This document shows positions 2,806 through 45,228 of a stretch of 45,228 nt of DNA, one piece after another. Position numbers and translations under genes: made by a program. The notes below the pieces were generated by a model. The model ran no database searches and was not told the DNA's origin. It saw only the letters and a program-made list of their open reading frames with translations. How positions within the stretch are numbered: the stretch's first letter is position 1; each line of letters begins with the position of its first letter. Source of the DNA: an uncultured bacterium (lineage in GTDB: Bacteria > Omnitrophota > Omnitrophia > Omnitrophales > Aquincolibacteriaceae); NCBI GenBank assembly GCA_964349955.1, contig CAYGIT010000001.1, forward strand, positions 1 to 45,228. The letters are read 5' to 3'.

Positions 2806-3746
2806 GGGTTTACCTTTGCTAGGAAAGATTCCAGTTTGTGAATGTCTTCGGTGCTGCCGCAGGATTCAACGGCCAGACCCGGCTGGCATTTGCGGGCGAG
2901 ACCTTTCAAGACTTTGCCAGGGCCGATTTCCAAAAAGGAAACGATTCCGGAAGCGGCCGCCACCGCCATGGTTTCCACCCATCGCACGGGGCTGACCAAC
3001 TGGCGGGCAAGAAGGCCGCGAATTTCTTCCGGGTTTGAAACCGGAACGGCCACCGCGTTCGGAATGAAAATGCCCTGGGGAGGATTGATCTTTATGGCTT
3101 TGAGAGCATTTTCAAGATCCGCTTTTGCCGGCATCATGAGGGAGGAGTGAAAAGCGCCACCGACTTTTAAAGGAATGGCACGTTTGGCGCCTGCGGCTTC
3201 CGCAAGCTGGCAGGCCCGCTGGATGGAATCATTCGAGCCGGACAGAACGGTTTGATCGGGGCTGTTGAGATTCGCCACATCGCAACCGGCTTCCCGGGCA
3301 ATGGATTCACAAGCCTCGCGCGGCAGCCCTATAAGGGAAGCCATGGTTCCTGCATTTTTTTGAGCGGCCTGCTCCATCGCTTCGGCGCGCTTTTGGACCA
3401 GCCGCAGCCCGTCTTCAAATGAAATGGATTTCAAGGCTGCAAGGGCGCTGAACTCTCCCAGCGAAAGCCCTGCGGCAAATGCGGGTTGAATTTCAGGAAA
3501 TTTTTCGTTAAGGACCGCATGCGCGGCAAGGCTGGCGGTAAACAAGGCCGGCTGGGCATAAAATGTCCGGGTGAGTTTTTCTTCCGGGCCCTGGAAACAA
3601 GCGTCGCGGACGGAGAATCCGAGAATGGAATCGGCCTGGTCAAAAATATGGCGGGCTGCCGGAAAGGAATCGTAAAGATCCCTGCCCATGCCGGCAAACT
3701 GCGCGCCCTGGCCTGGAAATAAAAATCCGATTTTTCCGGCTACCAT
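2802..3746 (-). CDS. fabD: Malonyl-CoA:ACP transacylase
   Basis: FLFPGQGAQ and GLSLGEFSALA motifs. The ORF is open to 3767. The ATG at 3746 (MVAGKIGFLFPGQGAQ) gives a typical N-terminus and a 7-nt overlap with the fabH stop. Confidence 0.92.
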   Translation of the reverse strand: MVAGKIGFLFPGQGAQFAGMGRDLYDSFPAARHIFDQADSILGFSVRDACFQGPEEKLTRTFYAQPALFTASLAAHAVLNEKFPEIQPAFAAGLSLGEFSALAALKSISFEDGLRLVQKRAEAMEQAAQKNAGTMASLIGLPREACESIAREAGCDVANLNSPDQTVLSGSNDSIQRACQLAEAAGAKRAIPLKVGGAFHSSLMMPAKADLENALKAIKINPPQGIFIPNAVAVPVSNPEEIRGLLARQLVSPVRWVETMAVAAASGIVSFLEIGPGKVLKGLARKCQPGLAVESCGSTEDIHKLESFLAKVNP

Positions 3747-4726
3747 TGGATTAAAGTCGAAGCCCAAGTCAGTCCCCCGCCGAAAGCAACAAGCACGACG
3801 GTGTCATTCTTTTTTATTTTTCCTGTTTTTACGGCTTCATAAAGCGCGACGGCGGTGGAAGCGCTCGACATATTTCCGTATTTTTCGACGTTGATAAAAA
3901 TTTTTTCAAGCGGCATTTCAAGGCGTTCCGCAACGGCTTGAAGGATGCGCATATTAGCCTGGTGCGGAATCAGGCAGTCAATATCCGAAATTTGAAGGCC
4001 GGCGTTTTGCACGACTTCCCGGACCGCCATATCCATAGTGCGCACCGCCACTTTAAAAACCTCGGAGCCTTGCATTTTGAGCGTATGCAATTTGGCACTG
4101 ACGGTTTCCAGCGTGGGCGGATGAGCCGAGCCGCCGCCGGGAATTTGCAGGAGTTCACCCTGCGAACCGTCGGCGCCGATCACGTTTGAAATAATCCCGT
4201 GTCCATCGGTTGACCGGGACAGAACAGCTGCGCCCGCGCCGTCTCCGAAAAGAACGCAGGTGGAGCGGTCGGTCCAATCGATGAACCCGGAAAGGACTTC
4301 GGTGCCGACGACGAGAACATTTTTATAAGTACCCGATTTAATAAAGCTGTCGGCCACAGCGACCGCATAGGGAAAACCCGCACATGCCGCGGCCAAATCG
4401 AAGGCCCCGCATTTGGCGCCTATTTTGTCCTGGATGCGGCAAGCGGTGGAGGGAAAAAACATATCCGGCGTGATGGTGGCGACAATGATGAGATCGAGCT
4501 CTTCGGGAGCCAGGCCCGCATTCGTGAGAGCCTCAAGCGCCGCGGGAATTCCAAGATCGCTGGCACTTTGATTTTTTTCGGCAATGCGGCGGGTCTGAAT
4601 GCCGGTGCGGCTCTGAATCCACTCGTCAGTGGTGTCGACCATTTTTTCAAGATCGGAATTGGTCAACACTTTTACGGGGACATAAGCCCCCAGTCCGCTT
4701 ACCTTTGTTTTAAACAGAGGATTCAC
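3740..4726 (-). CDS. fabH: 3-oxoacyl-ACP synthase III (KAS III)
   Basis: 328 aa with AACAGF active-site Cys, HQANMRI, and GGGLTWAS C-terminal motifs. Confidence 0.95.
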   Translation of the reverse strand: MNPLFKTKVSGLGAYVPVKVLTNSDLEKMVDTTDEWIQSRTGIQTRRIAEKNQSASDLGIPAALEALTNAGLAPEELDLIIVATITPDMFFPSTACRIQDKIGAKCGAFDLAAACAGFPYAVAVADSFIKSGTYKNVLVVGTEVLSGFIDWTDRSTCVLFGDGAGAAVLSRSTDGHGIISNVIGADGSQGELLQIPGGGSAHPPTLETVSAKLHTLKMQGSEVFKVAVRTMDMAVREVVQNAGLQISDIDCLIPHQANMRILQAVAERLEMPLEKIFINVEKYGNMSSASTAVALYEAVKTGKIKKNDTVVLVAFGGGLTWASTLIQW

Positions 4727-5756
4727 GAACGTTTTCTCTCGACCGGGATTGAGAGGCGCTTAAATTAGCGGTCACGCTTTCCACGATCAAGTCATTGACC
4801 TTGGTGGCCACGATGTCACTGGCCACGCGGATGGCATTGCGAATGGCGCGCGCCGATGAAATTCCATGGCTGATAATCACGGTCCCATTGACGCCCAAAA
4901 GCGGCGCCCCGCCGGCTTCTTCATAATTGGTTTCTTTACGGATGGCGGTCATGGCCGGCATGCAAAGCCATGCGCCAAGCATGCTGATGGGATTTTTTTT
5001 CAGTTCCCGCGAAAAAATGGCCACCGCGGTTTCCAGAACACTTTCGCACATTTTAAGAACAACGTTTCCCACAAATCCGTCGCAGATGATGCAATCCACT
5101 TTTCCCGTAAAAAAATCGCGGCCTTCAATGTTGCCGACAAAATTCAGCGAGGAATCGCGCAAAAGCTTGTACGCTTCCTTCAACACCTCGGTGCCTTTAC
5201 ATTCTTCTTCGCCGATATTCAAAAGCGCGACGGAAGGGCGTTTTTTCTTGAAAATACAGCGGGCATACACTTCGGCCATAAAAGCATACTGCAAAAGTTC
5301 TTCCGCCGAAGGATTCAAATTGGCCCCGACGTCCATGGCCACAGAAATTCCGTGCAAAGTGGGGGCGCCAATGGCAATTCCGGGCCGTTTGATGCCGGGA
5401 AGAAGCCCTAAATGAAGCATGCTCGCGGCGACCGCAGCGCCGGTATTGCCTGCCGTCATGACGGCATCCACCTGCCTGGTTTTGAGCAGGCCGATACATA
5501 CTGCAATCGAGGAATCTTTTTTCTTCTTGAGCGCTGAAACCGGCGAGTCCCCCATTCCGACAATTTCTGAAGCGGGGTGAATGACGATTTTTCCGCCGAG
5601 GACTTTATGGCGGTTCAGCTCGCTTTTCAGCGGCTCCGGCTGGCCGACGAGCACGATTTCCAGATTTGAAAAATCATTGGCGGCCTGCACCGCGCCCTCT
5701 ACGACCACCTGCGGGCCATAATCGCCCCCCATGCCATCGACGGCGATGCGGATCAT
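4710..5756 (-). CDS. plsX: Phosphate acyltransferase PlsX
   Basis: MIRIAVDGMGGDYGP N-terminus. The ATG at 5756 forms an ATGA overlap with the rpmF stop. The 37 codons further upstream in the track ORF overlap rpmF and are not PlsX-like. Confidence 0.93.
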   Translation of the reverse strand: MIRIAVDGMGGDYGPQVVVEGAVQAANDFSNLEIVLVGQPEPLKSELNRHKVLGGKIVIHPASEIVGMGDSPVSALKKKKDSSIAVCIGLLKTRQVDAVMTAGNTGAAVAASMLHLGLLPGIKRPGIAIGAPTLHGISVAMDVGANLNPSAEELLQYAFMAEVYARCIFKKKRPSVALLNIGEEECKGTEVLKEAYKLLRDSSLNFVGNIEGRDFFTGKVDCIICDGFVGNVVLKMCESVLETAVAIFSRELKKNPISMLGAWLCMPAMTAIRKETNYEEAGGAPLLGVNGTVIISHGISSARAIRNAIRVASDIVATKVNDLIVESVTANLSASQSRSRENVRESSV

Positions 5757-12057: not shown

Positions 12058-13704
12058 TGATTTTTTCGGATTCTCCCAAAGAGACCCCTGGCCAAACTTG
12101 ACTCCGAGGGATTTCAGGACTTCGAGGTCTTCCTCTGTTTCGATCCCTTCGGCGATAATTTCTGCACCCAGGGACCGGGCCACTTCCAGAATCCTTTTAA
12201 GGACGCGGACCAGAGAAGGATTTTTGGCAATGCCGATGACGCAACCTCTTTCGATCTTCACGATATCGGGCTCGAGCAGAATAAGGCTTTCCAGCGATCC
12301 CCGGCCGAAACCGGCATCGTCAATTGCGATCAACAGGCCGGCCTGTTTTAATTGCTTAACGGATTCGGCCAAATAGATGGCGCTTCCCATGATTTGCTGC
12401 TCGCTGATCTCCAGGCAATAGCTGCCTGGAGCCGGCGGTTGAGAAAATTCCCGGAGAAGCTTTTCCGCCGAAACTTCCACGAGAGTGGAAGGAAAAAGAT
12501 TGAGATGGTGCCGGTTTCCGGCGGGCAAAGTTAACGAAGCCGAGAGGCAACTTTTAAAACATCGAAGATCGACCTCCGTGAGAATATTATATTCCCGGCT
12601 GACACGGAAGAAATCTTCAGGAGCGGAAAATCCTGGCATATCAAAACGACTTAAAAATTCATAGCCCAGGACACGGGAATCTGTCAAAGAAAGGATGGGG
12701 TGTTTGATTGCGTGAAATTTTTCAGGCTGACGGAGGGCTTCGAAGATTCCATTTTTGATTTTGTCCTCAAAGTTCTCCCCTCCTGCTGCGTCAAAGTCGC
12801 TCGAAACACGGTTTTTTCCCATCAGTTTGCTTCGGTGAAGACCCTCATGAGTCTTCACGAGAAGTTCATCGATCGAAGTGGAGTCCGGAGAAAGATCCGT
12901 GACCCCAATGCTGGCCGTGACTTTAACTTCCTGGCCGGGCCCCAGGGGGAAAGGCGCGCCGGCGATCGCCGAACGGACCTTCTCTCCTACAAGCACTCCT
13001 TCGGCCTGCCGGGTTGACGTCAAAAGAACCATGAATTCGTCGCCGCCAATGCGAGCTGCATAATCGGTTGTACGCAAACAGGCAACGAGTCTTCGAACCG
13101 CTTCTTGAAGAACCCGGTCTCCTGCCGAATGCCCGATCGTATCATTGATGAGTTTGAAATTATCGATATCCAGGAATAACAGGATAGACCGGGTCCCTTC
13201 CCGGCGAGCGCGCTGCGACTCTCGAGAAAGAATTTCCTGGAATCCGCGCCGGTTCGGGAGCTCGGTCAGAGGATCCAGCAAGGAAATTTTTTCGAGATTT
13301 GCCTTGGTGGTCTGAAGCTCTCTGCGAATATTTGCGCGCTCAATGGCGTACCGGATCGCTCGCGACAGAGTCCCTTCGGTAAGGCTCTGCTTGACCAAAT
13401 AGTCTTGAGCTCCGTTGCGAACTGCTTCAAGAGCTGTTTTTTCCTCCAGGTAGCTCCCGGTCAAAATCACTACGGGGATATCCGGCATGGCTTTAATCAG
13501 TTCGAGGAAGGTTGAAACACCGTTGCTGTCCGGCACGTTAAGGTCACACAAGACAAGATCAATGCCCCCCATCTTGAGACGGTTCTTTGCCTCTTTGAGA
13601 TAGGTGACATTTTCGAGTTCACACTGCACACCGGAGAGTTTTTCAACCTGCTTCCGGATCAGGAAAAAATCATCCGGGTTATCCTCTAGGACAAGAATGC
13701 GCAT
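12031..13704 (-). CDS. Response regulator with REC-GGDEF-EAL domains (c-di-GMP turnover)
   Basis: MRILVLEDNPDD...LCDLNVPD receiver domain. Diguanylate cyclase RIGGDEF with an RTTD I-site 5 residues upstream. EAL-type domain (YEFLSR, LNLFPS, LEISEQ, IAIDDAGFG, EGIETEE...GQG). The ATG at 13704 was chosen; the track ORF is open to 13761, overlapping the upstream gene. Confidence 0.88.
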   Translation of the reverse strand: MRILVLEDNPDDFFLIRKQVEKLSGVQCELENVTYLKEAKNRLKMGGIDLVLCDLNVPDSNGVSTFLELIKAMPDIPVVILTGSYLEEKTALEAVRNGAQDYLVKQSLTEGTLSRAIRYAIERANIRRELQTTKANLEKISLLDPLTELPNRRGFQEILSRESQRARREGTRSILLFLDIDNFKLINDTIGHSAGDRVLQEAVRRLVACLRTTDYAARIGGDEFMVLLTSTRQAEGVLVGEKVRSAIAGAPFPLGPGQEVKVTASIGVTDLSPDSTSIDELLVKTHEGLHRSKLMGKNRVSSDFDAAGGENFEDKIKNGIFEALRQPEKFHAIKHPILSLTDSRVLGYEFLSRFDMPGFSAPEDFFRVSREYNILTEVDLRCFKSCLSASLTLPAGNRHHLNLFPSTLVEVSAEKLLREFSQPPAPGSYCLEISEQQIMGSAIYLAESVKQLKQAGLLIAIDDAGFGRGSLESLILLEPDIVKIERGCVIGIAKNPSLVRVLKRILEVARSLGAEIIAEGIETEEDLEVLKSLGVKFGQGSLWENPKKSLENNVKSI

Positions 13705-13718
13705 GAGATTTCGCTTTT

Positions 13719-14162
13719 CTAAACCGAATGAGGCTGCGGCAGACGCGCCACAAGAACCCAATAGAGTTCAAAGCGCTCGGCGAGTTGCTGGAAGGCCTGC
13801 AAACCAACGGGTTTGGTGATAAAGGAGCAGGCGCCTGCGCTATAAGATCGCGCCACATCCTCTTCCTGTTTGCTGGTGGTCAGGATGATCACAGGTAAGG
13901 ACTTGAGTTCCGGATCAGCCTTGAGCTCCTTCAACACGGTCCAGCCATCTTTTTTAGGCATATTGATATCGAGCAAAAGAAGCCCCGGACGCTCCGCATC
14001 TTTGTACTTTCCCTCGCGCCGGAGGTAGGCCATGGCCTCCTCACCATCCCTGACGACATTCAGACCATTCAGAACCTTGACGTTTTTAAACGCCTTTTGG
14101 ATCATCAGGATGTCGTCATCATTATCTTCCGCTAAAAGAATTCGAATTTTTTCTTCAGCCAT
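13719..14162 (-). CDS. Stand-alone CheY-like response regulator receiver
   Basis: 147 aa with ILLAEDNDDD, LLLLDINMPKKDG, and ILTTS...KP receiver motifs. No output domain. 8-nt overlap with the kinase gene. Confidence 0.88.
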   Translation of the reverse strand: MAEEKIRILLAEDNDDDILMIQKAFKNVKVLNGLNVVRDGEEAMAYLRREGKYKDAERPGLLLLDINMPKKDGWTVLKELKADPELKSLPVIILTTSKQEEDVARSYSAGACSFITKPVGLQAFQQLAERFELYWVLVARLPQPHSV

Positions 14163-17891: not shown

Positions 17892-18997
17892 GATATTTGA
17901 GTAATTTTTCCGTAGAGGTCGTGAATTTCCCGAGCCATGCGGTGAATGGAAAAGAGTTTTTCGACCATGGCCTTCCCTGTTTCGCTCATGCGGGTTCTCT
18001 CTTCTTTATTATTTAAAAGCCGTTTGATCGCGGCTGTGATGGGCTCGATGGCTTTGGGCGGAATCAGAATTCCGGTTACGCCGTCCTGAATCAGGGTATT
18101 CAAGGACCAAATGTTGGATACGATGACGGGCTTGCCGCAGGCCATGGCCTCCACAATGCTAAGCCCAAATCCTTCGCGCCAGGTGGCGGGAAACGCAAAA
18201 ATGTCGGTGGCGGCGAGGGCCTGGGTGATGTCTTTGAGGCTTCCGGTAAAGACAACATGCGATTCGAGATGAAGATGGCGGACAAGCTCTTTCAGCTCAT
18301 CGCGAAAAGGTCCGTCGCCTACGATCAATACCCGGAGCGAAGGAAATTCGGGAATCAGAAGAGGCACTGCCCGGATCAGGTATTCATGCCCCTTGTCGGC
18401 AACAAGACGGCCTATGCTTCCAATCACGGGGTCCCCGGGTTTAAAACCATAGGACAACTTTGCATCGTGGGCGTTATGCCGGGCAAAAGAGGACTGAAGT
18501 TCCTCCAAATCAACGGCGTTCGAAATGAGCCGGACCCGGCTTTCTGAAAGGCCGAAATCCCGGGTCAAGTGCTCGGCCACCCCATCGCTGATGGCAATCG
18601 CGCATTTTCCCCAGGCTGGAAGGAGGCGCCGCCCGATCCTTCTTTTATAGTAGCCGTGGCAGGTGGTGACAAAAGGAACTCCAGTCATTTTCTCCAGGCA
18701 GAAAGCCATCACTTGTGTGATCCGGGTATGGGCGTGGATCAAATCGATTTTATTTTCGAGGATGATTTTTTTAACCGCAGGCAGGTTGAAATAAATTTTA
18801 GGGTTTAATACATTTTTGGTGCGGATGGAAAGTTCGAAAGTTTTAGCCCCGTGCCCGGTAAATTCACCAGAGCAGTTTCCCCCGCTTGAAAGCACGAAGG
18901 TTTCAACCCCGAGTTTTTTGAGCGGTTTGATTAAGCGATAAATGTAAGTGGTGATTCCACCGACATTCAAATGCGTGGTCAGGTGCAGGACATTCAT
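17888..18997 (-). CDS. Glycosyltransferase family 4 (GT-B)
   Basis: 369 aa with MNVLHLTTHLNVGGITTYI N-terminus and a C-terminal FPATWREGFGLSIVEAMACGKPVI (EX7E-type) motif. Confidence 0.85.
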
Positions 18998-19929
18998 CAG
19001 GCGAAGGAAGAGCCGTGGAGAAGGCGCCGGCCTCGCGCAAAATCGGCCCCGCTCATGTCTTTTTTGCCCGCAGGCCTGAGGCTTTCGATGGCGAGAACTC
19101 CCTCGCCGGTCTGAATTTTCAAAAAAATCTTTTTATCTACGTCTGAAACCTGTCCCGGATCGAGAGAACTGCCGGAAGAACTATCAATGCGAGCCTTGAG
19201 AATCAGGATAGGGTCGCCCTGAAAAAGGGCGTAGGCTCCGGGCCAGGGCAACAAGCCGCGCACAAGACGGGAAATTTCAGCCGCCGATTTTTTCCAGTCA
19301 ATCAGGCCGTCTTCTTTCGTAAGTTTGCGCGCATACGTCGAGGCGGCTTCCGCTTGCGGCATGCGGGAAAGCGTCCTGGTTTCAATTTTCGAAAAAACGC
19401 AAGCCAGCGCTTCCCGTGAAAGCTCTGCAAGTTGAACCGAGAGAGACTCTGAATCCATTTGTTCCGTCAGAGGGATTCGTTTTTGATAAAAAATGTCGCC
19501 GGCGTCAAGCTGGGGCGTGACCTCGGCAATGGAAATTCCGGTTTCCGCATCCCCATTCAAAATCGGCCAATTCAAGGGAGAGGCTCCCCGGTATTTGGGC
19601 AGAAACGAGGGGTGAACATTCAATGAAAGCTGTTTGGGGATCGACAACCATGAAGCCGGGATGATTTTGCCATAGGAAGAGACCACAAAAAAATCCGGAT
19701 TCAGGGACTTGACCTGCGTAATCAGTGCTTCGTCTTTCAGCTTTTCCGGCGCAACAAAAGAAATTTTATTTTGCTCGCAAAAAAGGCGTACCGGCGCCGG
19801 CTGAAGTTTCAATCCCCTTCCTTTAGGGCGGTCGGGGGTGGTGATGACAAGGCCCACCGGAAAGCGGCTTGCAAGGCAGGCTTTGAGGGCTTCGATTGAA
19901 AAATCCGAGGAACCAAAGAAAACGATCAC
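18997..19929 (-). CDS. fmt: Methionyl-tRNA formyltransferase
   Basis: 310 aa with SLNVHPSFLPKYRGASPLNWPILNGD motif. GTGA overlap with the def stop. Confidence 0.94.
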   Translation of the reverse strand: MIVFFGSSDFSIEALKACLASRFPVGLVITTPDRPKGRGLKLQPAPVRLFCEQNKISFVAPEKLKDEALITQVKSLNPDFFVVSSYGKIIPASWLSIPKQLSLNVHPSFLPKYRGASPLNWPILNGDAETGISIAEVTPQLDAGDIFYQKRIPLTEQMDSESLSVQLAELSREALACVFSKIETRTLSRMPQAEAASTYARKLTKEDGLIDWKKSAAEISRLVRGLLPWPGAYALFQGDPILILKARIDSSSGSSLDPGQVSDVDKKIFLKIQTGEGVLAIESLRPAGKKDMSGADFARGRRLLHGSSFA

Positions 19930-20414
19930 AAGACCTGATACTGGGAAAGGACTTCCTGGCGTTGATTAAAATCCAGACGATCAATCAAAAGAATTCCGTC
20001 CAGATGGTCCATTTCATGCTGGATGATGCGGGCAAAGAATTCCCGCAATTCTGCCGTGATGACTTCCCCGAACCGGTCCTGATACCGCACCTTGATTTTT
20101 TTTGCCCGCAGCACTTCCCCCTGAATGCCGGGAAGGCTAAGACAACCCTCGGAGCCTAATTCCCTGCCGGAAGAATGAAGAATTTCAGGATTCACAATCA
20201 CATGCTCTTCGCCCTTTTTGACCGTAGGACAGGCAATCAGCACACGTTTCGAAACCCCGATTTGCGGCGCGGCAAGCCCCACCCCGTCTTCGACATGCAT
20301 GGTTTCGATCATGTCCTCAAAAAGCTTTTGCTCAGCCTCCCCAAACTGGGTCAGCCGCTCCGCCTTGATCTTAAGAGCCGGATTCGGATAAGTAAGAACT
20401 TTCAGAAGTGCCAT
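19926..20414 (-). CDS. def: Peptide deformylase
   Basis: 162 aa with GVGLAAPQIG, EGCLSLPG, and HEMDHLDG metal-binding motifs. Confidence 0.96.
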   Translation of the reverse strand: MALLKVLTYPNPALKIKAERLTQFGEAEQKLFEDMIETMHVEDGVGLAAPQIGVSKRVLIACPTVKKGEEHVIVNPEILHSSGRELGSEGCLSLPGIQGEVLRAKKIKVRYQDRFGEVITAELREFFARIIQHEMDHLDGILLIDRLDFNQRQEVLSQYQVL

Positions 20415-20421
20415 ACCCTAA

Positions 20422-20430
20422 ATTTTATCA
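20422..20430 (-). promoter_or_regulatory. Candidate extended -10 promoter element for def (TGaTAAAAT)
   Basis: The minus strand reads ggtaTGaTAAAATttagggtATG. The hexamer ends 7 nt before the def ATG. No Shine-Dalgarno at a functional distance. Confidence 0.35.
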
Positions 20431-20472
20431 TACCCCCGCCGCCCCCGTCATCCTCGAAAAAGGATGCTCGCT

Positions 20473-20656
20473 CTCGAAGTCGTGCAGCAGAATTTTCCGG
20501 ACTCCGGCAGACGCGCTCCAGCTTCGGCAAAAGTAAGCCCGCGGCGGGTGCGGACCCTCCGCGCTCCCCTGCGGGGCCGCGGGTTCCACACCCACCCCGG
20601 GCAACTTTTGCACGAAGCTTCCGCGCGCCCTGCCTCCGTCCGGAAAATTCTGCTGC
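20473..20656. repeat. Mosaic palindromic repeat, module A (long imperfect hairpin closed by a perfect 19-bp inverted repeat)
   Basis: gcagcagaattttccggac (20484-20502) is the exact reverse complement of gtccggaaaattctgctgc (20638-20656). The 135-nt interior continues to pair: ggcag/ctgcc, cgcgc/gcgcg, agcttcg/cgaagct, gcaaaagt/acttttgc, cccgcggc/gccgcggg. Confidence 0.85.
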
Positions 20657-20694
20657 CCCGGGCTCTTTTCTTTTTTCAAGCCCTTGGGCCGAGG

Positions 20695-20867
20695 CCGGCA
20701 AGGAGGGAAGCTTCTCCGGAGGCAGCTAACGGAACCGTCCGGAGCTCGGTCCCGCCGTTTTGTGGCGGGTCCGGACGGTGAGTTAGCAGGGAGTCGTTCG
20801 CCGCTGGAGCGAACGAACTCCCGGTGCCGCAGGGGAAGCTTCCCTCCTTGCCGGCACGACCACGACC
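20695..20867. repeat. Mosaic palindromic repeat, module B (perfect 20-bp inverted repeat enclosing two hairpins, plus a right-hand tail)
   Basis: ccggcaaggagggaagcttc (20695-20714) is the exact reverse complement of 20835-20854. The interior folds into hairpin B1 (20726-20786, apex cccgcc-gttttgt-ggcggg) and hairpin B2 (20789-20822). Positions 20757-20867 are about 93% identical to the reverse complement of 45118-45228. Confidence 0.85.
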
Positions 20868-20907
20868 TCGCGCAGTCTTTGTTGTACTAGCTGGAGAAGC
20901 GAGCGTG

Positions 20908-22962
20908 TTAGAGGATGTTGAGAGGATCGACGTCGAGGGCGTAGGCAACGTCGGAGGGTTTTTTGAGGGTGTCTATGGCTTCGCGGACGAGTTGAGTGAC
21001 GTCCTGATTGAGCGGGAGTTTGAGCATGACATGCCAGCGGAAATGGCCGCGGAGTTTATAAAATGGGAGCGGCGCAGGGCCGATGATTTCGAAAGTGAGG
21101 GAAGCCGATGACGCTTCGAATGCTTGTTTCAAGCCCTCCCGGAATTCGCGGGCGAATTTGTAGGCTTTGTTTTCGTCGTGCGAGCGGATGATGACATTGA
21201 TCAGGCGCTTGAAAGGCGGATAGCCGTATTGCTCGCGTTCTTTGGCTTCGTGCTGATAAAAATTCGGGTAATCGTGTTTTTTGGCGAAAACAATGCTGGG
21301 ATGCTCCGGAGAGAAAGTTTGAATGAAAACGCGCCCGGGATTCTTTCCCCTTCCGGCCCGGCCCGCCACCTGGGTCATCAATTGAAAGGTCCTTTCGGCG
21401 GAACGAAAATCCGGAAGGCTCAATCCGACATCGGCCAGAACTACCCCGACCAAGGTCACATGGGGGAAATCAAAACCTTTTGCGATCATCTGGGTGCCGA
21501 TCAAGATATCGATTTGCTGGTCCCGGAATTTTTTAAGGATTTCTTCATGGGACCCTTTCTTGCGCACGCTGTCGGCATCCATACGCGCGATCCGGGCCAC
21601 GGGAAAATGCGCGGCCAGTTCGCTTTCGACTTTTTCCGTGCCGAAACCGGTGAACCGCAAAAGCGGCATCCTGCATTGGCTGCAGATGGCGGAAGCTTTT
21701 TTCTGGAAGTTGCAATAATGACAAAGGAGAATATCGGATTGTTGGTGAAAAGTGAGCGAGACCTGGCAGGAAGGGCAGGATTCCACCAGGGCGCATTTGG
21801 GGCAGCTCACATGGGTTGAAAAACCCCGGCGGTTGAGCAACAGGATAGTCCCCTCTTTTTTCCTGAGATTGGTTTCGATTTCCTCGAGCAAACGCAAACT
21901 GAAAAATCCTTTTTTGCGCGGTCCGGACAAATCCTTGAGATCGATCACATGCACTTCGGGCATGTCTTTTTCGTCAATGCGGGTCGCAAGCCTCAATAAT
22001 TCAACATTTCCGATCTTCGTTTGATACATGGTTTCAAGCGAGGGGGTCGCGCTTCCCATCAGAAAAAGCGCGTTCTCCTGTTCCGCGCGCCAGGTGGCGG
22101 CGTCTCGGGCATGATATCGCGGCGTTGTTTCCTGCTTGTACGAGCCTTCATGCTCTTCATCCATAATCAAAAGCCCGAGATTAGAAACCGGCGCAAACAC
22201 GGCGGAGCGTGGTCCCAAGACCACCTGGCATTGTCCCTTTTGAATTCTTTGCCAGGCTTTGAAGCGTTCGGAGTCTGAAAGTTTGCTGTGAAGGATTTCC
22301 AGGCTCTTGCCAAAGTGGAGAATAAAAAAACGCCGGATTTGTTCGGTCAAGGCGATTTCCGGAACCAGGCAAATCGCGGACTTCCCTTTTTTAAGCACTT
22401 CCCGGATTGTGCGAATATAAAGCTCGCTTTTTCCGCTACCAGTGACGCCGTGCAGAAGAATGGGTTTGGGATGGGGATTTTCAAGAGATGGCACTATTTT
22501 TTCAAAAGCCGATTTTTGATCGGGCGATAAGGCCAGATCGACCGGCGGGATGAGCGCGTTCTCTGCTCCTTCGTCGAAGTCCTCCGCCGGCTTCTTGCCA
22601 TATTTCACCCATTTGGGCAGCGCGTTTTCAATTGCCTCGCCCCAGGAGCATCCATAATAAAGGCTGATTTTTTTGGTGAGGCCAAGAATGGTGGCGGAAA
22701 TTACCGGGGTCTCATCCAGAACGGCGGAAAGGGATTTTAATTTTCGCAATTGATTTTCATCGACGGGAGGAATTTCGGGCAAAGCCGTGACGTAGCCCAC
22801 GATCTCCCGGTTCCTGAACGGCACGCGCACCCGCGCGCCCACCCGGATTTTGGGTTGAAGTTCTTCGGGCACGGTGTACGTGAAAGGACCGGGAATCGGG
22901 AGCGGAACGGCGATTTCCGCGTAGGCACCCGCGAGAATTTTTTCAGGAGAGAAAATGGGCAT
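20908..22962 (-). CDS. priA: Primosomal protein N' (replication restart helicase PriA)
   Basis: 684 aa with HGVTGSGKSE Walker A, MDEEHE, CPKC...CPSC...CHYC...CSQC zinc-binding insertion, and GRAGRG. Confidence 0.95.
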   Translation of the reverse strand: MPIFSPEKILAGAYAEIAVPLPIPGPFTYTVPEELQPKIRVGARVRVPFRNREIVGYVTALPEIPPVDENQLRKLKSLSAVLDETPVISATILGLTKKISLYYGCSWGEAIENALPKWVKYGKKPAEDFDEGAENALIPPVDLALSPDQKSAFEKIVPSLENPHPKPILLHGVTGSGKSELYIRTIREVLKKGKSAICLVPEIALTEQIRRFFILHFGKSLEILHSKLSDSERFKAWQRIQKGQCQVVLGPRSAVFAPVSNLGLLIMDEEHEGSYKQETTPRYHARDAATWRAEQENALFLMGSATPSLETMYQTKIGNVELLRLATRIDEKDMPEVHVIDLKDLSGPRKKGFFSLRLLEEIETNLRKKEGTILLLNRRGFSTHVSCPKCALVESCPSCQVSLTFHQQSDILLCHYCNFQKKASAICSQCRMPLLRFTGFGTEKVESELAAHFPVARIARMDADSVRKKGSHEEILKKFRDQQIDILIGTQMIAKGFDFPHVTLVGVVLADVGLSLPDFRSAERTFQLMTQVAGRAGRGKNPGRVFIQTFSPEHPSIVFAKKHDYPNFYQHEAKEREQYGYPPFKRLINVIIRSHDENKAYKFAREFREGLKQAFEASSASLTFEIIGPAPLPFYKLRGHFRWHVMLKLPLNQDVTQLVREAIDTLKKPSDVAYALDVDPLNIL

Positions 22963-22967
22963 GGCGG

Positions 22968-23642
22968 TCAGGCCTGGGCATCCAGTTCGCGGCGGATCAT
23001 TTTCATGTCTTCCCAGACTTTTCTTTTTTCTCCGGGATTACGCAAAAGATAGGCAGGATGAAAGGTTGCGATAATCTTGAGCCCGTTTTTTTCATAAAAC
23101 TGGCCGCGCAATCGGGAAATCGTTGTCTCAGATTCCAGAATTGTTTGCGCCGCAAAAGTCCCAAGCGCGCAAATAATTTTGGGTCCGATCAGTTCAATTT
23201 GTTTTAAAAGATAGGGCCGGCAATTCCGGATTTCATTCGGCTGGGGCGGGCGATTGCCCGGCGGCCGGCACTTGAGCGTATTGGCGATAAAAACTTCCTC
23301 GCGCGTCAACCCGATCGATTCAATGATTTTGGTGAGAAGCTGCCCTGCCCGGCCCACAAAGGGAACTCCCTGGATGTCTTCTTCGGAACCCGGTGCTTCA
23401 CCGATAAACATGAGTTTTGCGTGAGGGCTCCCCGATCCAAAAACCACGTTTTTTCTTGTCGTGGCCAGTTCATGGCAAAGGGTACAGGCCAGGGTTTGCT
23501 CACGCAACTTGAGAAGCGCCTCAGAGGGGACAGGCAGAAAACCGCTGCCTGTCCCCTTTTCTCTGGCAGGAATATAGATTTCTTCAATGCCTTCTTCGTG
23601 GAGGGATTTTAAAAAAAGTTTGGCTTCTTTTGGGTTTCTCAT
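22968..23642 (-). CDS. udg: Uracil-DNA glycosylase, family 4
   Basis: CTLCHEL...NVVFGSG, FIGEAPGSEED, PFVGRAGQLL, and TFHPAYLLRN motifs. The ATG at 23642 was chosen; the track ORF is open to 23693, overlapping the upstream gene. Confidence 0.88.
   Translation of the reverse strand: MRNPKEAKLFLKSLHEEGIEEIYIPAREKGTGSGFLPVPSEALLKLREQTLACTLCHELATTRKNVVFGSGSPHAKLMFIGEAPGSEEDIQGVPFVGRAGQLLTKIIESIGLTREEVFIANTLKCRPPGNRPPQPNEIRNCRPYLLKQIELIGPKIICALGTFAAQTILESETTISRLRGQFYEKNGLKIIATFHPAYLLRNPGEKRKVWEDMKMIRRELDAQA
23525..23557. repeat. Small REP-like hairpin R1a (13-bp stem)
   Basis: aggggacaggcag-aaaaccg-ctgcctgtcccct. Lies in frame inside the N-terminal region of the UDG ORF (encodes GTGSGFLPVP). Confidence 0.8.
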
Positions 23643-23646
23643 GGTT

Positions 23647-24795
23647 TCAGGATGAGGGGACAGGCAGCGGTTTTCTGCCTGTCCCCTCATCAAGCACCCA
23701 ATCCACTAAATCTTTCGCGGCTTCCGGTTTGGCAAGACGCCGGATTTCTGTTTTTTTCGCTTCAAGGATTTCCGGATTATTCAGAATGGCCTGAATGATG
23801 GTTTTGAGCTGTGCCGGCTGATTCATGATGAAGGCGGCATTCCGGGATTTCAGCACGTCGGCATTGCGCGTTTCCTGGCCGGGAATCGGATCGATCACGA
23901 TCATGGGGACTTCCTTGGTCAGCGCTTCGGTGGTGGTCGAGCCGCCGGACTTTGCAATGATCAGGTCGCTGGCTTCCATGAGGTCGGCCATAAAGTCGAT
24001 AAAGCCAAAAATTTTCACAGAAAAAGGAAAGTTTTTCTTCTCGAGAATGAGTTTGAGGCCGTTATTGTTGCCGCAGACCACAAAGCATTGAATCCTGTCT
24101 TTGAACGGCGCCAGAGCATCGAGCATTTGTTCTTGGGGGCCAAGGCCGAAACTGCCGCTGGTCATCAAAAGAGTCAATCGTTCCGGAGAAAATCCCCATT
24201 TTGCGCGGATTTCATTCTTGATTCCTTTGGGCCTGAAAACAGGAGCCACCGGAATCCCGGCCGCGCGGATTCTGGATTCCGGAATTCCCCGGTGTTCAAG
24301 CTCGCGGGCGCCTTCCTCTCCCATGACCCAGTAAAGGTCCATGCCTTTCGTGACCCAGAATGTGTGGGGCAAAAAATCAGTAATGACGGCAATGACTTTT
24401 GCCGTGATCTCCCCTTTTCTGCGGGCATTGGCAAAAAATTCGGAGGAAAGAAAATGCGTGCAGAGAATCGCATCGGGTTTTTCTTTCCGGACCAGGTCCA
24501 GCAGCCGGAGCGCCATGAGGCGGTTATGAAGGCTTCGCAGAGGATGAAGCCAACGGTAAAAATTTATTTTGTCGAGAGTCTCGTAAAACCAGCCCCAGAG
24601 GCCGGGAATATTTTTAACGGCATACTGATAAACTGCCGGATAACTTTTACGGAAAAAAGCCGGCGTAAAATCAAGGGCGTCAAAAAGCTTGACCTCATGG
24701 TCCGTGAGGCCCCGTTTTTTGAATTCAGCGGCAATGACCTGGGCGACTTGCTTGTGCCCGTGGCCGGCATTGGCATAAAAGAGGAGGATTTTCAT
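23647..24795 (-). CDS. GT28-family diacylglycerol glycosyltransferase (MGDG synthase / UgtP-like)
   Basis: 382 aa with MKILLFYANAGHGHKQVAQ N-terminal motif typical of MGDG_synth-type enzymes, and a C-terminal GT28 half (AKSGGSTTTEAL). Confidence 0.8.
   Translation of the reverse strand: MKILLFYANAGHGHKQVAQVIAAEFKKRGLTDHEVKLFDALDFTPAFFRKSYPAVYQYAVKNIPGLWGWFYETLDKINFYRWLHPLRSLHNRLMALRLLDLVRKEKPDAILCTHFLSSEFFANARRKGEITAKVIAVITDFLPHTFWVTKGMDLYWVMGEEGARELEHRGIPESRIRAAGIPVAPVFRPKGIKNEIRAKWGFSPERLTLLMTSGSFGLGPQEQMLDALAPFKDRIQCFVVCGNNNGLKLILEKKNFPFSVKIFGFIDFMADLMEASDLIIAKSGGSTTTEALTKEVPMIVIDPIPGQETRNADVLKSRNAAFIMNQPAQLKTIIQAILNNPEILEAKKTEIRRLAKPEAAKDLVDWVLDEGTGRKPLPVPSS
23653..23689. repeat. Small REP-like hairpin R1b (15-bp stem), inverted copy of R1a
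   Basis: tgaggggacaggcag-cggtttt-ctgcctgtcccctca. The loop is the reverse complement of the R1a loop. It encodes the last ~13 aa of the GT28 ORF (GTGRKPLPVPSS). Confidence 0.8.
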
Positions 24796-34631: not shown

Positions 34632-34666
34632 GCAGTTTCGAATGGCGACATCGCTTCGCGGATCAA

Positions 34667-34755
34667 GGTCGTGCCCGTGCCGTCAAGGAGGGAAGCTTCT
34701 GGACTTGCCAGCACGAGCACGGCCGAGCCGTCCGGAAAATTCTGCTGCACGACCC
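34667..34755. repeat. Mosaic palindromic repeat, copy 3 (collapsed hairpin plus 23-nt terminal motif)
   Basis: 34667-34699 matches 30/33 to the reverse complement of 20835-20867. 34704-34755 matches about 49/52 to the reverse complement of 45088-45139. It contains gtccggaaaattctgctgcacga at 34730-34752. Confidence 0.85.
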
Positions 34756-43531: not shown

Positions 43532-45062
43532 AGAACCCCGTATAGTAATGCCGATTGGGGAAAAATGGAATCAGTTTTGTATTGTCATTACCCCTGTCAT
43601 GGGCATAAACAACCGGGGCGTCCAGGAAGGGGCTGTTGCGAATACTATCGTCGGGAGCCATGACCAGGCTGTCGCCCAAAAAGCCCTTGAGAAAGACAAG
43701 GGCCGGGAGTTTGGAGTTTTTTTCAGCGGCATCATACAGGGCCCGGCGCTCTCCGGTGATTTGATGATAAAAAGTAAAATGGCGGATTAAAAGCGGAATC
43801 GTGGCAAGGGCCGAAAAGACAAGCGCGCCTGAAATCATTTTCCGGATTTTCAGGGCCGAAGATTTCCAGGTTTGGACAAGGCAGAAACTGACAAATAAAA
43901 TCGAAAAGGGATAGGCTTCATAATAGTACCGCGGACCGTATTGATTTCCGCCCCAGGAATAATAAAGCATATACCCGGCTGCAAGGAACACAATACTTGC
44001 CCGGAGGCAAAAATCCCGGGAACTGACAGGCCGGCGGATAAACGCGGTGAAAAGAAAAAACAAAATCCAGCCCGGCGGCGTCCAATCAATGAGATAAAAA
44101 ATCCGCTGCACGAGGTATTGCAGTGCCAGCGCCGGAGGATAGCCCGCAATGAATCCCAGTTTTTCATGGGAATGAAGGTAATGATTGGGCGGATTCCAGA
44201 AACGCCCGGTCAAAAGATGATTGTAAAAAAGCTGCAACCCGAGAAGCAAGAAAACAAGGACGCTAAAAACCTTAAAGGGAAATTTGTTTTTTCCCCTGTT
44301 TTTCAGTGTTTGAATGAAAAACTGAAAGACCAGCGGCGCGCTCATGGCCGCAGCGGTCAGATAGCGCGTACCCAAGGCATATCCCAAAGCAAGGCCGGCC
44401 ACGGCAGCCCAAATCCACTTTCCGGTTTCTTCGAGGCGGAGCATGGCGCTCCAGAAAAGCAGGATCAAAAGCAAACATAAATTATGAGAATAATAGGCTG
44501 CGCCGGTCATGAGGAAAAACGGGCTGATGACGAGAAAAACCGAGGCCAGCAAAGCGGTTGAAAAACCGTATGTTTTCCGTCCGCTGTCAAAAAAGAAGGC
44601 CATTGAAACCGCCGTAATCCAGGGATTGAGGACATCCTTGAGGTGGAGCTTGAGACCGAGCGCCCAAACCAGCGGCCACCCCGGAGGATAGACGCTGAAC
44701 CACTTGTCCCCGATGGCTCCGATATGCACGGTTTCAAAAAACGCTTGCAGCGGATGCGGCCGGGCCCAGAATTTTCCGGCCTCCAGGCATTGCGCGAAAA
44801 AAAAGCAGGAATGCTCATCCGCAGAATTCATGAAGGAAAGCAATACCTTCCGGTTGATCGCAATGAGAATCCCGGCAAGCAACAGAATCAGAAAAAGCAC
44901 GGTGAGCCGGGCATGCATTTTAAAAAAACGTATCCCCCGCTCCAGCCATCCCGGCCAGGCATCCGGCAACAAAAGTCCAACCAAAAGCCCAAGCAGCGGC
45001 ATGGTCTGCAGAAAAAAAGTTTGAGTCTCAATAAAAAGACGAAAGGGCGGATGAAAGGCCAT
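43479..45062 (-). CDS. GT-C-fold glycosyltransferase, PMT/ArnT-like (family 39/83-type)
   Basis: About 527 aa, polytopic. The first-loop acidic motif NSADEHSCFFFAQ resembles the PMT/ArnT DE motif, and there is a soluble C-terminal domain. The ATG at 45062 (MAFHPPF) was chosen because the 27 upstream codons are encoded by repeat copy 4. Confidence 0.75.
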   Translation of the reverse strand: MAFHPPFRLFIETQTFFLQTMPLLGLLVGLLLPDAWPGWLERGIRFFKMHARLTVLFLILLLAGILIAINRKVLLSFMNSADEHSCFFFAQCLEAGKFWARPHPLQAFFETVHIGAIGDKWFSVYPPGWPLVWALGLKLHLKDVLNPWITAVSMAFFFDSGRKTYGFSTALLASVFLVISPFFLMTGAAYYSHNLCLLLILLFWSAMLRLEETGKWIWAAVAGLALGYALGTRYLTAAAMSAPLVFQFFIQTLKNRGKNKFPFKVFSVLVFLLLGLQLFYNHLLTGRFWNPPNHYLHSHEKLGFIAGYPPALALQYLVQRIFYLIDWTPPGWILFFLFTAFIRRPVSSRDFCLRASIVFLAAGYMLYYSWGGNQYGPRYYYEAYPFSILFVSFCLVQTWKSSALKIRKMISGALVFSALATIPLLIRHFTFYHQITGERRALYDAAEKNSKLPALVFLKGFLGDSLVMAPDDSIRNSPFLDAPVVYAHDRGNDNTKLIPFFPNRHYYTGFYDRDRHRPQIESLSTSS

Positions 45063-45081: not shown

Positions 45082-45228
45082 CTCGAGGTTCGTGCAGCAG
45101 AATTTTCCGGACGGCTCGGTCGTGCTCGTGCTGGCAAGGCCAAAAGCTTCCCCTGCGGTACCGGGAGTTCGTCCGCTCCAGCGGCGAACGACTCCCTGCT
45201 AACTCACCGTCCGGACCCGCCACAAAAC
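45082..45228. repeat. Mosaic palindromic repeat, copy 4 (inverted, truncated by the window end)
   Basis: tcgtgcagcagaattttccggac (45090-45112) is identical to 20480-20502. The reverse complement of 45118-45228 matches 20757-20867 at about 103/111 positions. The window ends inside the apical loop of hairpin B1. Confidence 0.85.

Follow-up and report, generated by a model that had tools for sequence, protein, structure and literature searches.

The priA–def spacer of an uncultured Omnitrophota-like bacterium and its probable place in an interspersed palindromic repeat family

The enlarged spacer between priA and def

The window analysed here is a whole contig of 45,228 nt. On its minus strand lie three genes recognised by their Pfam domains: priA (20908-22962), def (19926-20414) and fmt (18997-19929). 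The spacer between priA and def (20415-20907) is 493 nt long, making it the largest non-coding gap in the window, and its GC content is 64% compared with 51% for the window as a whole. The first-pass annotation had singled out this spacer as long and GC-rich, at a junction that is normally tight, and both observations hold. Among three related genomes, in which PriA is 64–68% identical and the order UDG-priA-def-fmt-GT4-GAPDH is kept, the priA–def spacers measure only 51, 33 and 72 nt. Further, BLAST found no match to the extra sequence in ~90 kb from these three genomes. Since the relatives' spacers are short and lack the element, some 390 nt of the spacer (20479-20868) represent a lineage-specific insertion.

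Remnants of the native spacer persist on either side of this insertion, with 64 nt on the def side (20415-20478) and 39 nt on the priA side (20869-20907). The former carries a sigma-70-like promoter candidate for def on the minus strand (20422-20451; ATGACG-18-TAAAAT, with TG ahead of the -10 hexamer), which therefore sits outside the element. It is the sole promoter-like site found, against 0.1 expected. Its -35 hexamer is overlapped by a small hairpin (~20445-20469), which had been listed earlier as a feature but which is at chance level when compared with shuffled sequences (z -1.0 to -1.7). The short spacers of the relatives, read by eye, likewise finish in -10-like A/T-rich motifs just upstream of def.

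Anatomy and folding of the composite element

The complete composite, copy 1 (20479-20868, ~390 nt), was delimited by repeat and BLAST maps, by its folds and by its absence from the relatives' orthologous spacer. It is bounded by GTCGTGC ... GCACGAC(CACGACC), termini that are provisional in that they are drawn from two complete copies only. Within these bounds are two palindromic modules. The left arm of module A (20484-20510) contains the perfect core GCAGCAGAATTTTCCGGAC at 20484-20502, and the right arm (20630-20656) is an inverted copy of it that also matches 45094-45114 at 100%. These 27-nt arms are 89% complementary and pair perfectly over 19 nt (20484-20502 / 20638-20656), the same inverted repeat and coordinates that had been given for the closure of this module. 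Between them lies interior X (20511-20629), present in copy 1 only. It had been described as continuing to pair through further helices, and several helices do appear in the fold, but they form a single long, imperfect, rod-like hairpin and not a branched structure.

A conserved, T-rich linker of 37 nt, CCCGGGCTCTTTTCTTTTTTCAAGCCCTTGGGCCGAG (20657-20693, plus strand), leads from module A to module B. The left arm of module B, GCCGGCAAGGAGGGAAGCTTC (20694-20714), ends in the self-complementary octamer GAAGCTTC, and its right arm is GAAGCTTCCCTCCTTGCCGGC (20835-20855), which has a 91% match to 34666-34699. The two form a perfect 21-mer inverted repeat (20694-20714 / 20835-20855), one pair longer than first reported, within arms of 31 nt that are 90% complementary (20694-20724 / 20825-20855). 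They enclose the 120-nt insert Y (20715-20834), which has GAAGCTTC on both flanks and consists of a stem extension and two hairpins; the Y shape proposed earlier for this module thus reappears in the folds as a three-way junction. Beyond the right arm, the outer extension ACGACCACGACCT (20856-20868) forms the right terminus of the composite; copy 2 has it too, as does the E unit of copy 3 (there GGTCGTGSTCGTGC). By our own estimate, a perfect inverted repeat of at least 19 bp within 200 nt would be expected by chance ~3e-5 times per 45 kb.

Folding of both strands, as the first-pass annotation had suggested, showed each to be far more stable than shuffled sequence, with z close to -15. The minimum free energy of 20479-20868 as RNA is -261.8 kcal/mol on the plus strand (z -14.9, 100 shuffles) and -278.4 kcal/mol on the minus strand (z -14.6, 100 shuffles), and 0/100 shuffles folded as well as the element. 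G-U pairs number only 1–3 among the 66–73 pairs of each module, the stems being almost pure Watson-Crick on both strands. The Rfam scan proposed at the same time found no known family. No covariance model reached its gathering score in the window, copy 3 had no Rfam match, and relaxed thresholds recovered only generic long-hairpin miRNA models (18–28 bits, against cut-offs of 65–200). ARAGORN reported no tRNA or tmRNA. An intrinsic terminator was rejected, as no terminator-like site was found on either strand. CRISPR or tandem repeats were dismissed for want of periodic direct repeats, and a replication origin or terminus was rejected because GC skew, at the scale of the window, shows no switch at 20.6 kb. 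An integron attC site and a retron were also considered; no R/L core motifs were seen in the sequence, and neither an integrase nor a reverse transcriptase is encoded nearby.

Further copies and their mosaic relations

The search for other copies that had been recommended, applied to the window, recovered two by BLAST, at 34667-34754 and from 45088 onward. Copy 2 (34667-34754, minus strand) is an 88-nt short form in inverted orientation, consisting of an A-left arm and a hybrid B'/B hairpin without interior, and it occupies a 211-nt gap between Wzy_C and carbamoyltransferase genes. Over its left 67 nt it matches copy 3 (94% identity) and over its right 34 nt it matches copy 1 (91% identity), with the two parts meeting at a single GAAGCTTC. 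A contig of a different sample carries copy 2 without any change, and two other assemblies cross it intact. Copy 3 (45088-45228, plus strand) is a long form that begins 86 nt upstream of a PMT_2-family gene start at 45002. It is cut by the end of the window, and runs on for at least 277 nt in contig L028 (1-418, minus strand). All of the three largest non-coding gaps in the window contain this family. Its three loci are found within 45.5 kb, have different neighbouring genes and include both orientations, one copy being truncated. Contigs from other samples were checked for insertion polymorphism and showed none, copies 1 and 2 having the same or nearly the same sequence in all samples recovered.

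The copies are related as mosaics. Their arms and the T-rich linker are 94–100% identical, while their interiors are swapped, inverted or deleted. A 19-24-mer of the A arm occurs four times in the window with 100% identity, its left form recurring at 34730-34753 (minus strand) and 45090-45112 (plus strand). Copies 1 and 3 share a co-linear block of 96 nt (20632-20727) that is 96.9% identical and includes the linker, together with an inverted block of 177 nt at 91%. Part of module B, 111 nt long, reappears inverted at 45118-45228 with 93% identity. The B-left arm recurs in the second B module of copy 3 and, in hybrid form, in copy 2. Between the A arms, the interior of copy 3 differs from X.

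Insert Y recurs in copy 3 almost unchanged (116/120). There it is enclosed by diverged B' arms and, with respect to the A arm, points the other way. Its orientation with respect to its own asymmetric outer extension is the same in copies 1 and 3, and therefore the whole E unit has been inverted, not the interior alone. The arms of the two E units differ at 11/42 positions, compared with 4/120 in the insert (Fisher p = 7e-5), and all five of the stem pairs that changed were altered on both sides with pairing kept. As a pattern in the sequence, this uneven divergence is in keeping with Y being a young insert and the two hairpin variants around it being older. A further insert of copy 3, Z, shares ends of 13 nt and 12 nt with Y and has the same flanking GAAGCTTC. 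The cores of Y and Z are unrelated (66% and 49% GC), and the two inserts are alike in layout, each having a closing stem and two hairpins, with different sequences. Read from these copies, the full-length unit apparently opens with a GTCGT left terminus and the A arm, followed by an interior and the inverted A arm. After the T-rich linker comes the B arm, which ends in GAAGCTTC; next is an insert whose ends are conserved (TCCGGAGGCAGCT ... GGTGCCGCAGGR), and the unit closes with the inverted B arm and the right terminus ACGACCACGACC. Other palindromic families are present in the same genome.

A scan for the A-arm 19-mer gave 14 single matches in GTDB genomes and 10 in JGI metagenomes. All were set aside as members, as they lie in unrelated sequence, mostly evident coding regions, and similarity ends a few nt past the 19-mer. 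These are chance or codon-driven matches. There were 0 matches in viral contigs, and BLAST against plasmids and phages gave only borderline matches of 34–46 nt. The six-frame translation of the element has no protein homologue, and its 105-aa ORF has none among 1.84 billion representatives. On these grounds a degraded gene or small protein was rejected. Pfam detected no transposase, RAYT, integrase, reverse transcriptase or site-specific recombinase in the ~53 kb examined (the window and an 8-kb extension). A full-text literature search found no paper joining Omnitroph and miniature inverted-repeat. No described family had come to mind at first sight of the sequence, and the searches agree in identifying none.

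Interpretation and proposed origin

We consider it likely that the priA–def spacer holds one member of an interspersed family of non-coding palindromic repeats, lineage-specific and of the MITE/BIME/BOX-like kind. Copies of the family are dispersed and differ by modules that have been swapped, inverted or deleted; relatives lack it at this site, and nothing recognisable is encoded in it. The element is most likely selfish DNA of a familiar kind, whose mobility we infer, rather than a new RNA gene. The first-pass annotation had offered both a mobile mosaic and a structured RNA transcribed with priA and def. The former is borne out by the additional copies, the shuffled modules, the site empty in three relatives and the breaks in assemblies; the latter is not favoured, given strands that fold equally, few G-U pairs, no Rfam match and interiors that differ.

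Nevertheless, a structured non-coding or cis-regulatory RNA family, transcribed with its flanking genes and having functional closing stems and three-way junctions, would explain the extremely stable folds, the five closing-stem pairs that changed on both sides and still pair, and the common layout of Y and Z despite their different sequences. The minus strand, which is the mRNA sense for priA and def, also folds slightly better (-278 vs -262 kcal/mol). We regard this as improbable, because the same structure forms on both strands almost without G-U pairs, Rfam is silent even at relaxed thresholds, copies lie in both orientations relative to flanking minus-strand genes, interiors have been exchanged or lost, the two sequences compared give no covariation at all in their interior helices, and relatives lack the element. 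Recruitment by the host is another reading to which we give little credence. Here the repeat would serve mainly to uncouple priA from def, as a transcriptional insulator or as a place where mRNA is processed or stabilised, and would have spread because it was useful, as proposed for REP/BIME. The location between co-directional genes that are nearly contiguous in relatives is in keeping with such a role, as are def's own promoter-like site just past the insert and, on the plus strand, an A hairpin followed by the conserved T-rich tract; REP/BIME and BOX sequences are reported to influence mRNA stability and expression (PMC3184786, PMC3049150). However, that tract lies on the strand antisense to priA and def, and neither strand has an intrinsic-terminator-like site. 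Placement is also inconsistent: copy 3 is found upstream of a gene, and copy 2 has the opposite orientation and separates other genes. Relatives, too, manage without the element.

Invertons, in which a recombinase would act at the 19-31-bp inverted arms and flip the 100-135-bp interiors, suit the geometry of inverted repeats around short segments and the reversal of Y against the A arm between copies 1 and 3. ENA contigs, moreover, stop precisely where the B arms have their inner borders (20715 and 20825). The reading is very improbable nonetheless. Y is constant in orientation with respect to its own outer extension, the entire E unit having been inverted; the candidate segments contain no promoter-like site; the region encodes no site-specific recombinase; and all assemblies, comprising the ENA contigs and the window, have a single orientation, an observation at assembly level that leaves room for a minor orientation. 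Contigs from at least three other assemblies also stop at arm borders or within elements, which is expected of repeats. Such failures to cross the element, in a metagenome-assembled contig, might instead point to a chimeric or fold-back join of repeat-containing reads. We find this scarcely credible, since two independent ENA contigs overlapping by 111 nt rebuild exactly the arrangement of the window, other samples partly reproduce the spacer in contigs of 99.6–100% identity, and copy 2 is intact in two other assemblies.

Under the preferred reading of a mobile repeat family, spread would have occurred at the DNA level, with an enzyme from another part of the genome acting in trans to mobilise the copies. 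Simple palindromes may have existed first, with inserts X, Y and Z then entering at their centres; the target in B-type hairpins would be AAGCTT, with GAAGCTTC duplicated, and in the A hairpin probably TCCGGA. The candidate 'empty' A and B hairpin forms are GCAGCAGAATTTTCCGGAAAATTCTGCTGC and ...GGAGGGAAGCTTCCCTCC.... The short copy 2 could then derive from a long form via deletion between two GAAGCTTC repeats. As GAAGCTTC is self-complementary, the 'duplication' that flanks Y and Z could be a simple stem extension, and not a footprint of transposition. The compensated stem changes would also be expected from selection on a functional hairpin. This counts against the mobile-repeat reading, as do the small number of copies collected (three, one of them truncated), the lack of a target-site duplication around copies 1 and 2, the negative Pfam result for a transposase in the ~53 kb, the failure to see insertion polymorphism, and a GC-richness unlike that of typical prokaryotic MITEs. 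A bolder proposal has two forms. X, Y and Z might be small hairpin elements that integrate site-specifically at the exact centre of short palindromes atop hairpin repeats (AAGCTT with GAAGCTTC duplication; TCCGGA), repeated integration generating 'Russian-doll' palindromes, or else the three-way-junction layout of Y and Z might mark a functional RNA or ssDNA fold. We hold this to be unlikely, but, if apex integration were true, Omnitrophota would possess an undescribed machinery that directs mobilisation to hairpin apices.

The priA–def intercistronic RNA would now contain two hairpins, of about -117 and -141 kcal/mol, which could stop read-through or be cleaved by double-strand RNases. Because def keeps a promoter-like site just outside the insert, the insertion was presumably tolerated. 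The locus is a small natural experiment, in which very stable hairpins have been placed between two essential, formerly adjacent genes. The element accounts both for the anomalous 493-nt gap in a normally tight priA-def-fmt cluster and for the fragmentation of this organism's assemblies at these points, and it cautions annotators against calling ORFs or RNA genes in these GC-rich spacers. It also puts on record a family of interspersed palindromic repeats in an uncultivated Omnitrophota-like lineage. The signature of nested insertion, namely inserts that are young, have ends in common and sit at the palindromic centre of hairpins that are older and diverged, is a lead if it holds genome-wide.

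Comparison with known repeat families

Miniature inverted-repeat elements are defined as, among other properties, non-coding and shorter than 500 bp, and typical prokaryotic MITEs are AT-rich (PMC10969869). Copy 1 (~390 nt) and copy 2 (88 nt) fall within this size and have no protein homologues. Terminal inverted repeats of MITEs are ~4–30 bp; here, copies 1 and 2 end in GTCGTGC / GCACGAC (7–8 bp), and the module arms span 19–31 bp. In common with Chunjie of Geobacter, Nezha of cyanobacteria and Correia/NEMIS of Neisseria, the element combines inverted termini and stable stem-loops with dispersed, near-identical copies (PMC10969869, PMC3184786). Filled and empty sites among relatives, represented here by three loci within 45.5 kb and a site empty in three relatives, and tolerated insertion within an operon are further shared traits (PMC10969869, PMC3184786). 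The element departs from MITEs in its terminal repeats of just 7–8 bp, in being GC-rich rather than AT-rich, in having no known parent IS and in lacking a target-site duplication. No direct repeat flanks copy 1 (CTCTCGAA on one side, CGCGCAGT on the other) or copy 2 (GGATCAA and CTGTCCC). A pattern of terminal inverted repeats plus duplication is found only at the inner inserts Y and Z, with the self-complementary GAAGCTTC on both sides and a target that is itself palindromic.

The REP/BIME sequences of enterobacteria and pseudomonads are built from many copies of an imperfect, GC-rich palindrome of ~20–40 nt. Units of the present family are instead hairpins of 160–180 nt, with complex interiors and arms of 19–31 bp that are not self-palindromic, as opposed to palindromes of ~35 nt, and no sequence similarity was found. 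Both are nonetheless GC-rich, extragenic and palindromic, and both are mosaics of inverted units with conserved linkers, seen here as the inverted A and B arm pairs and the 37-nt linker common to copies 1 and 3. BIMEs and the element also lie between genes of an operon and have no classic target-site duplication, and BIMEs are reported to affect mRNA stability (PMC3184786). REPINs, which are inverted REP doublets mobilised by RAYT, offer a related parallel. The present family differs from them: neither its A nor its B arm is itself a small palindrome, its arms are separated by variable spacers of 100–200 nt, and no RAYT was seen in the region examined. In each case, however, two inverted, conserved copies of ~20 nt produce one long hairpin and evolve as a within-genome family (PMC3116915).

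Streptococcus BOX elements (boxA-boxB(n)-boxC) belong to another phylum. Their variation lies in tandem boxB modules, whereas hairpin interiors are swapped or nested in the GC-rich element described here. BOX also has reported TIRs and TSDs linked to an IS, a link not found for the element. The resemblance is in modular construction, with conserved terminal modules that pair and internal modules that vary, in sizes from below 100 to several hundred nt, in having several of their reading frames open, and in residence at transcribed intergenic sites (PMC3049150). As a general kind, BIME, BOX and MITE sequences are well known, and a specialist would be little surprised by the element.

Two palindromic modules in the priA-def spacer

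Every gene near the priA-def spacer is carried on the minus strand, including those assigned by Pfam to PriA (20908-22962), peptide deformylase (def, 19926-20414) and Met-tRNA formyltransferase (fmt, 18997-19929). At 493 nt, the spacer (20415-20907) is exceeded by no other non-coding gap in the window, and its GC content is 64%, against a window mean of 51%. A repeat finder and folds of both strands bear out the two large inverted-repeat modules described in the first-pass annotation. The 27-nt arms of module A (20484-20510 / 20630-20656) are 89% complementary and include a perfect 19-mer; in module B (20694-20724 / 20825-20855) the 31-nt arms are 90% complementary and include a perfect 21-mer. 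The whole element (20479-20868) folds at an MFE of -261.8 kcal/mol on the plus strand (z -14.9) and -278.4 kcal/mol on the minus strand (z -14.6), and 0 of 100 shuffles came near the native energy. Module A forms a single long rod-like hairpin. Module B has a closing stem followed by a three-way junction bearing two hairpins, as had been proposed for its Y-shaped interior. A small hairpin also claimed at about 20445-20469 proved to be at chance level (z -1.0 to -1.7).

The rest of the spacer amounts to 39 + 64 = 103 nt. Its def-proximal remnant holds the region's sole sigma-70-like site (minus strand, 20451 to 20422, ATGACG-18-TAAAAT, with TG upstream), and def is probably served by its own promoter. 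No intrinsic terminator is predicted at the element, and any priA-def read-through transcript would contain a pair of hairpins, at about -117 and -141 kcal/mol. GC skew gives no hint of a replication origin or terminus at this site.

PriA has its closest homologues at 59-68% identity; those named belong to Candidatus Omnitrophota/Omnitrophica MAGs, and the phylum is assigned on this basis. Three relatives keep the order UDG-priA-def-fmt-GT4-GAPDH with short priA-def spacers: 51 nt in L034 (PriA 68% identical to that of the window), 33 nt in L035 (65%) and 72 nt in L037 (65%). A BLAST comparison with about 90 kb of sequence from the three detected nothing of the element. Judged from these sequences, the priA-def insertion is lineage-specific.

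Copies and mosaic anatomy of the family

The spacer element belongs to a repeat family and is not the one-off duplication that the first-pass annotation had allowed for: the window holds two more loci, at 34667-34754 (copy 2) and from 45088 (copy 3). In a window-wide repeat search, the A-arm 24-mer GTCGTGCAGCAGAATTTTCCGGAC (20479-20502) recurs inverted at 34730-34753, and its last 23 nt recur in direct orientation at 45090-45112. The B arm with its outer extension is found again at 34666-34699, and a 111-nt stretch of module B (20757-20867) reappears in inverted form at 45118-45228, 93% identical up to the point where the window stops. The copy sites coincide exactly with the window's three largest non-coding gaps.

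Copy 1 (20479-20868, plus orientation) reads GTCGT, A-left, the rod-forming interior X, A-right, a 37-nt T-rich linker, B-left, the 120-nt insert Y, B-right and ACGACCACGACC; B-left ends and B-right starts with GAAGCTTC. Copy 3, extended 277 nt past the window end by L028, a contig of the same organism from another assembly, shares both A arms with copy 1. Between them is a different interior (the E unit), made up of outer extension GGTCGTGCTCGTGC, a variant B arm (B'), Y and a second B' arm, reversed in orientation relative to the A arm. After A-right come the same linker and B-left as in copy 1 (a 96-nt block, 96.9% identical) and then an insert, Z. Z and Y have their first 13 nt and 12 nt at the opposite end in common; their cores are unrelated (GC 49% in Z, 66% in Y).

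The inverted copy 2 (34667-34754) is short, at 88 nt, and folds only weakly (z about -2); two other assemblies contain it without any difference. Its first 67 nt are 94% identical to copy 3 (A-left and B'-left arm) and its last 34 nt are 91% identical to copy 1 (B-right arm and terminus), the two parts overlapping at one GAAGCTTC. We infer that copy 2 is what a deletion between two GAAGCTTC of a long form would leave.

Searches further afield gave little. Scans with the 19-mer returned only chance matches in unrelated genomic and metagenomic sequence, mostly in evident coding regions, and none in viral contigs. Against plasmids and phages, BLAST produced nothing beyond borderline matches of 34-46 nt, and looking in protein space for spurious ORFs that might lie over further copies yielded none. 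GTCGTGCAGCAGAATTTTCCGGAC is identical in unrelated MAGs (Alphaproteobacteria, Acidoferrales) at L011 ~4063-4090, L016 ~3102-3129 and L026 ~762-789, where TAC comes next and the stretch would read ...VVQQNFPDY if coding; we judge this a coincidence aided by codon constraints. Within a PMT_2-family coding region of the window, 44767-44789 holds an A-arm-like stretch of 18-23 nt (CAGAATTTTCCGGCCTCC, 91-94% identical), which is probably due to chance (BLAST E = 0.018).

The longest contig on record for the exact PriA protein measures 45,228 bp; the window is thus an entire MAG contig, and its right end falls inside copy 3. Other assemblies of the organism (ENA ERZ27247820 and ERZ27247830; Logan ERR3094295) also break in the elements or at their borders. 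Their contigs are 99.6-100% identical over the parts covered, and a 111-nt overlap of two ENA contigs rebuilds the window arrangement. The sequence is therefore real rather than chimeric. Contig ends were compared across L001, L028, L029, L032, L033, L040 and window ends 1 and 45228. Within the same population, contigs from MEGAHIT and Logan stop at arm borders (20508, 20623, 20715, 20825/20826, 34722 and 45122), and the Logan contig L040 stops inside a palindromic element of L039, from the same genome. These repeats are a main cause of assembly breakage in this organism.

DNA palindromes and a probable route of spread

The first-pass annotation had left open a dedicated structured RNA or a mobile mosaic. 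Evolved RNAs usually show a strand preference. Here, both strands of each module fold about equally, with 1-3 G-U among 66-73 pairs, which points to a DNA-level constraint. Copies occur in both orientations relative to the minus-strand neighbouring genes, and no tRNA or tmRNA was found. No Rfam family is represented: nothing reached the gathering score, and relaxed thresholds gave generic long-hairpin miRNA models only. A dedicated RNA is thus not favoured. Selection on a hairpin is possible from the two E units compared, in which five closing-stem pairs have changed on both sides and still pair, the interior helices being invariant. The arms of these units differ at 11/42 positions and the insert at 4/120 (Fisher p = 7e-5), and the simplest reading is that near-identical Y inserts occupy two palindromes, B and B', which are older and had diverged beforehand. 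Such a history would explain the apparent compensation in the stem without RNA selection. The mobile mosaic gains support from the dispersed modular copies and their absence in relatives: the element is a dispersed, modular, non-coding palindromic family without presence in those relatives.

Most likely, this mosaic family spreads as DNA, trans-mobilised by an enzyme encoded elsewhere, and inner inserts with common ends (TCCGGAGGCAGCT ... GGTGCCGCAGGR) integrated into simple palindromes, at their midpoints. The ends of X are related (CTCCGG..CAG). Y and Z are flanked on both sides by GAAGCTTC, and the interior-less hairpin of copy 2 has one GAAGCTTC, at its apex. This pattern resembles an 8-bp target duplication, a likeness that is suggestive only, because the octamer is self-complementary. 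The composite termini are inverted repeats of just 7-8 bp (GTCGTGC / GCACGAC). No target-site duplication was found around the whole composite, nor any transposase in the approximately 53 kb examined. As a less likely alternative, the nesting of inserts at hairpin apices may be the product of a targeting mechanism not described before.

Other palindromes and comparison with known systems

Other palindromes occur in this genome. Perfect, mutually inverted 34-nt hairpins (GGGGACAGGCAG-AAAACCG-CTGCCTGTCCCC) lie 97 nt apart at 23524-23557 and 23655-23688 (also 23642-23700), and by analogy look like a REPIN-type doublet. Both are in frame within coding sequence: one forms the C-terminal tail of an MGDG-synthase-like gene (...GTGRKPLPVPSS*), and the other falls within a variable linker near the N-terminus encoded by the UDG-family gene (...GTGSGFLPVP...), where the sequence in relatives is unrelated. 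The longest ORF of the latter has a TTG start at 23693 and a 47-nt overlap with the upstream gene (window 23640-23693); a start at the ATG at 23642-23640 (MRNPKEAKLF...) is more likely, since it matches the N-termini of relatives in alignment.

A third palindromic element (L039 17235-17379) lies about 7.6 kb past the window's left end, flanked by a PF02660 (G3P_acyltransf) gene and by a large gene that gives faint hits to HTH domains. It has 31-nt arms, a fold z of -8.0 and no Rfam match; a 17-mer of its core gave chance matches in viral contigs. The interior core (CGGAAAAACAATCAGCGCC..TTGCCGAG..GAGGAGATC..[variable hairpin]..AGCTCYGARCGAGGCGGCGCGTTTTG) is kept in a different gene context in another Omnitrophota species (PriA 65% identical; L035 13745-13915, L036 ~4992-5162), and the two species diverge in the closing stem and in the apical hairpin. 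This element could represent a structured motif, RNA or DNA, that has been conserved. In L035 it adjoins a further module with 36-nt arms (13573-13724, 78% complementary), which lies in a 424-nt fmt-GT4 gap (whole-gap fold z -5.6). Related genomes thus harbour intergenic palindromes of their own, at other junctions in this gene cluster.

Among described elements, BIMEs are GC-rich mosaics of inverted palindromic units with conserved linkers between them, BOX elements are modular composites whose end modules pair, and MITEs include Chunjie, which inserted into an operon and left it undisrupted (PMC3184786, PMC3049150, PMC10969869, our sources for this comparison). The element described here resembles all three in kind. 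However, it differs from MITEs in being a composite without target-site duplication and in being GC-rich rather than AT-rich, its units are far larger than REPs, and, unlike REPs, BIMEs and MITEs, it has no IS or RAYT partner in the approximately 53 kb examined. Because the defining features of BIMEs, BOX elements and MITEs are seen only in part, we treat it as a family that is new but of a known kind, outside any named family. It is a neat case of a new family of palindromic repeats, from a phylum that has been little studied.
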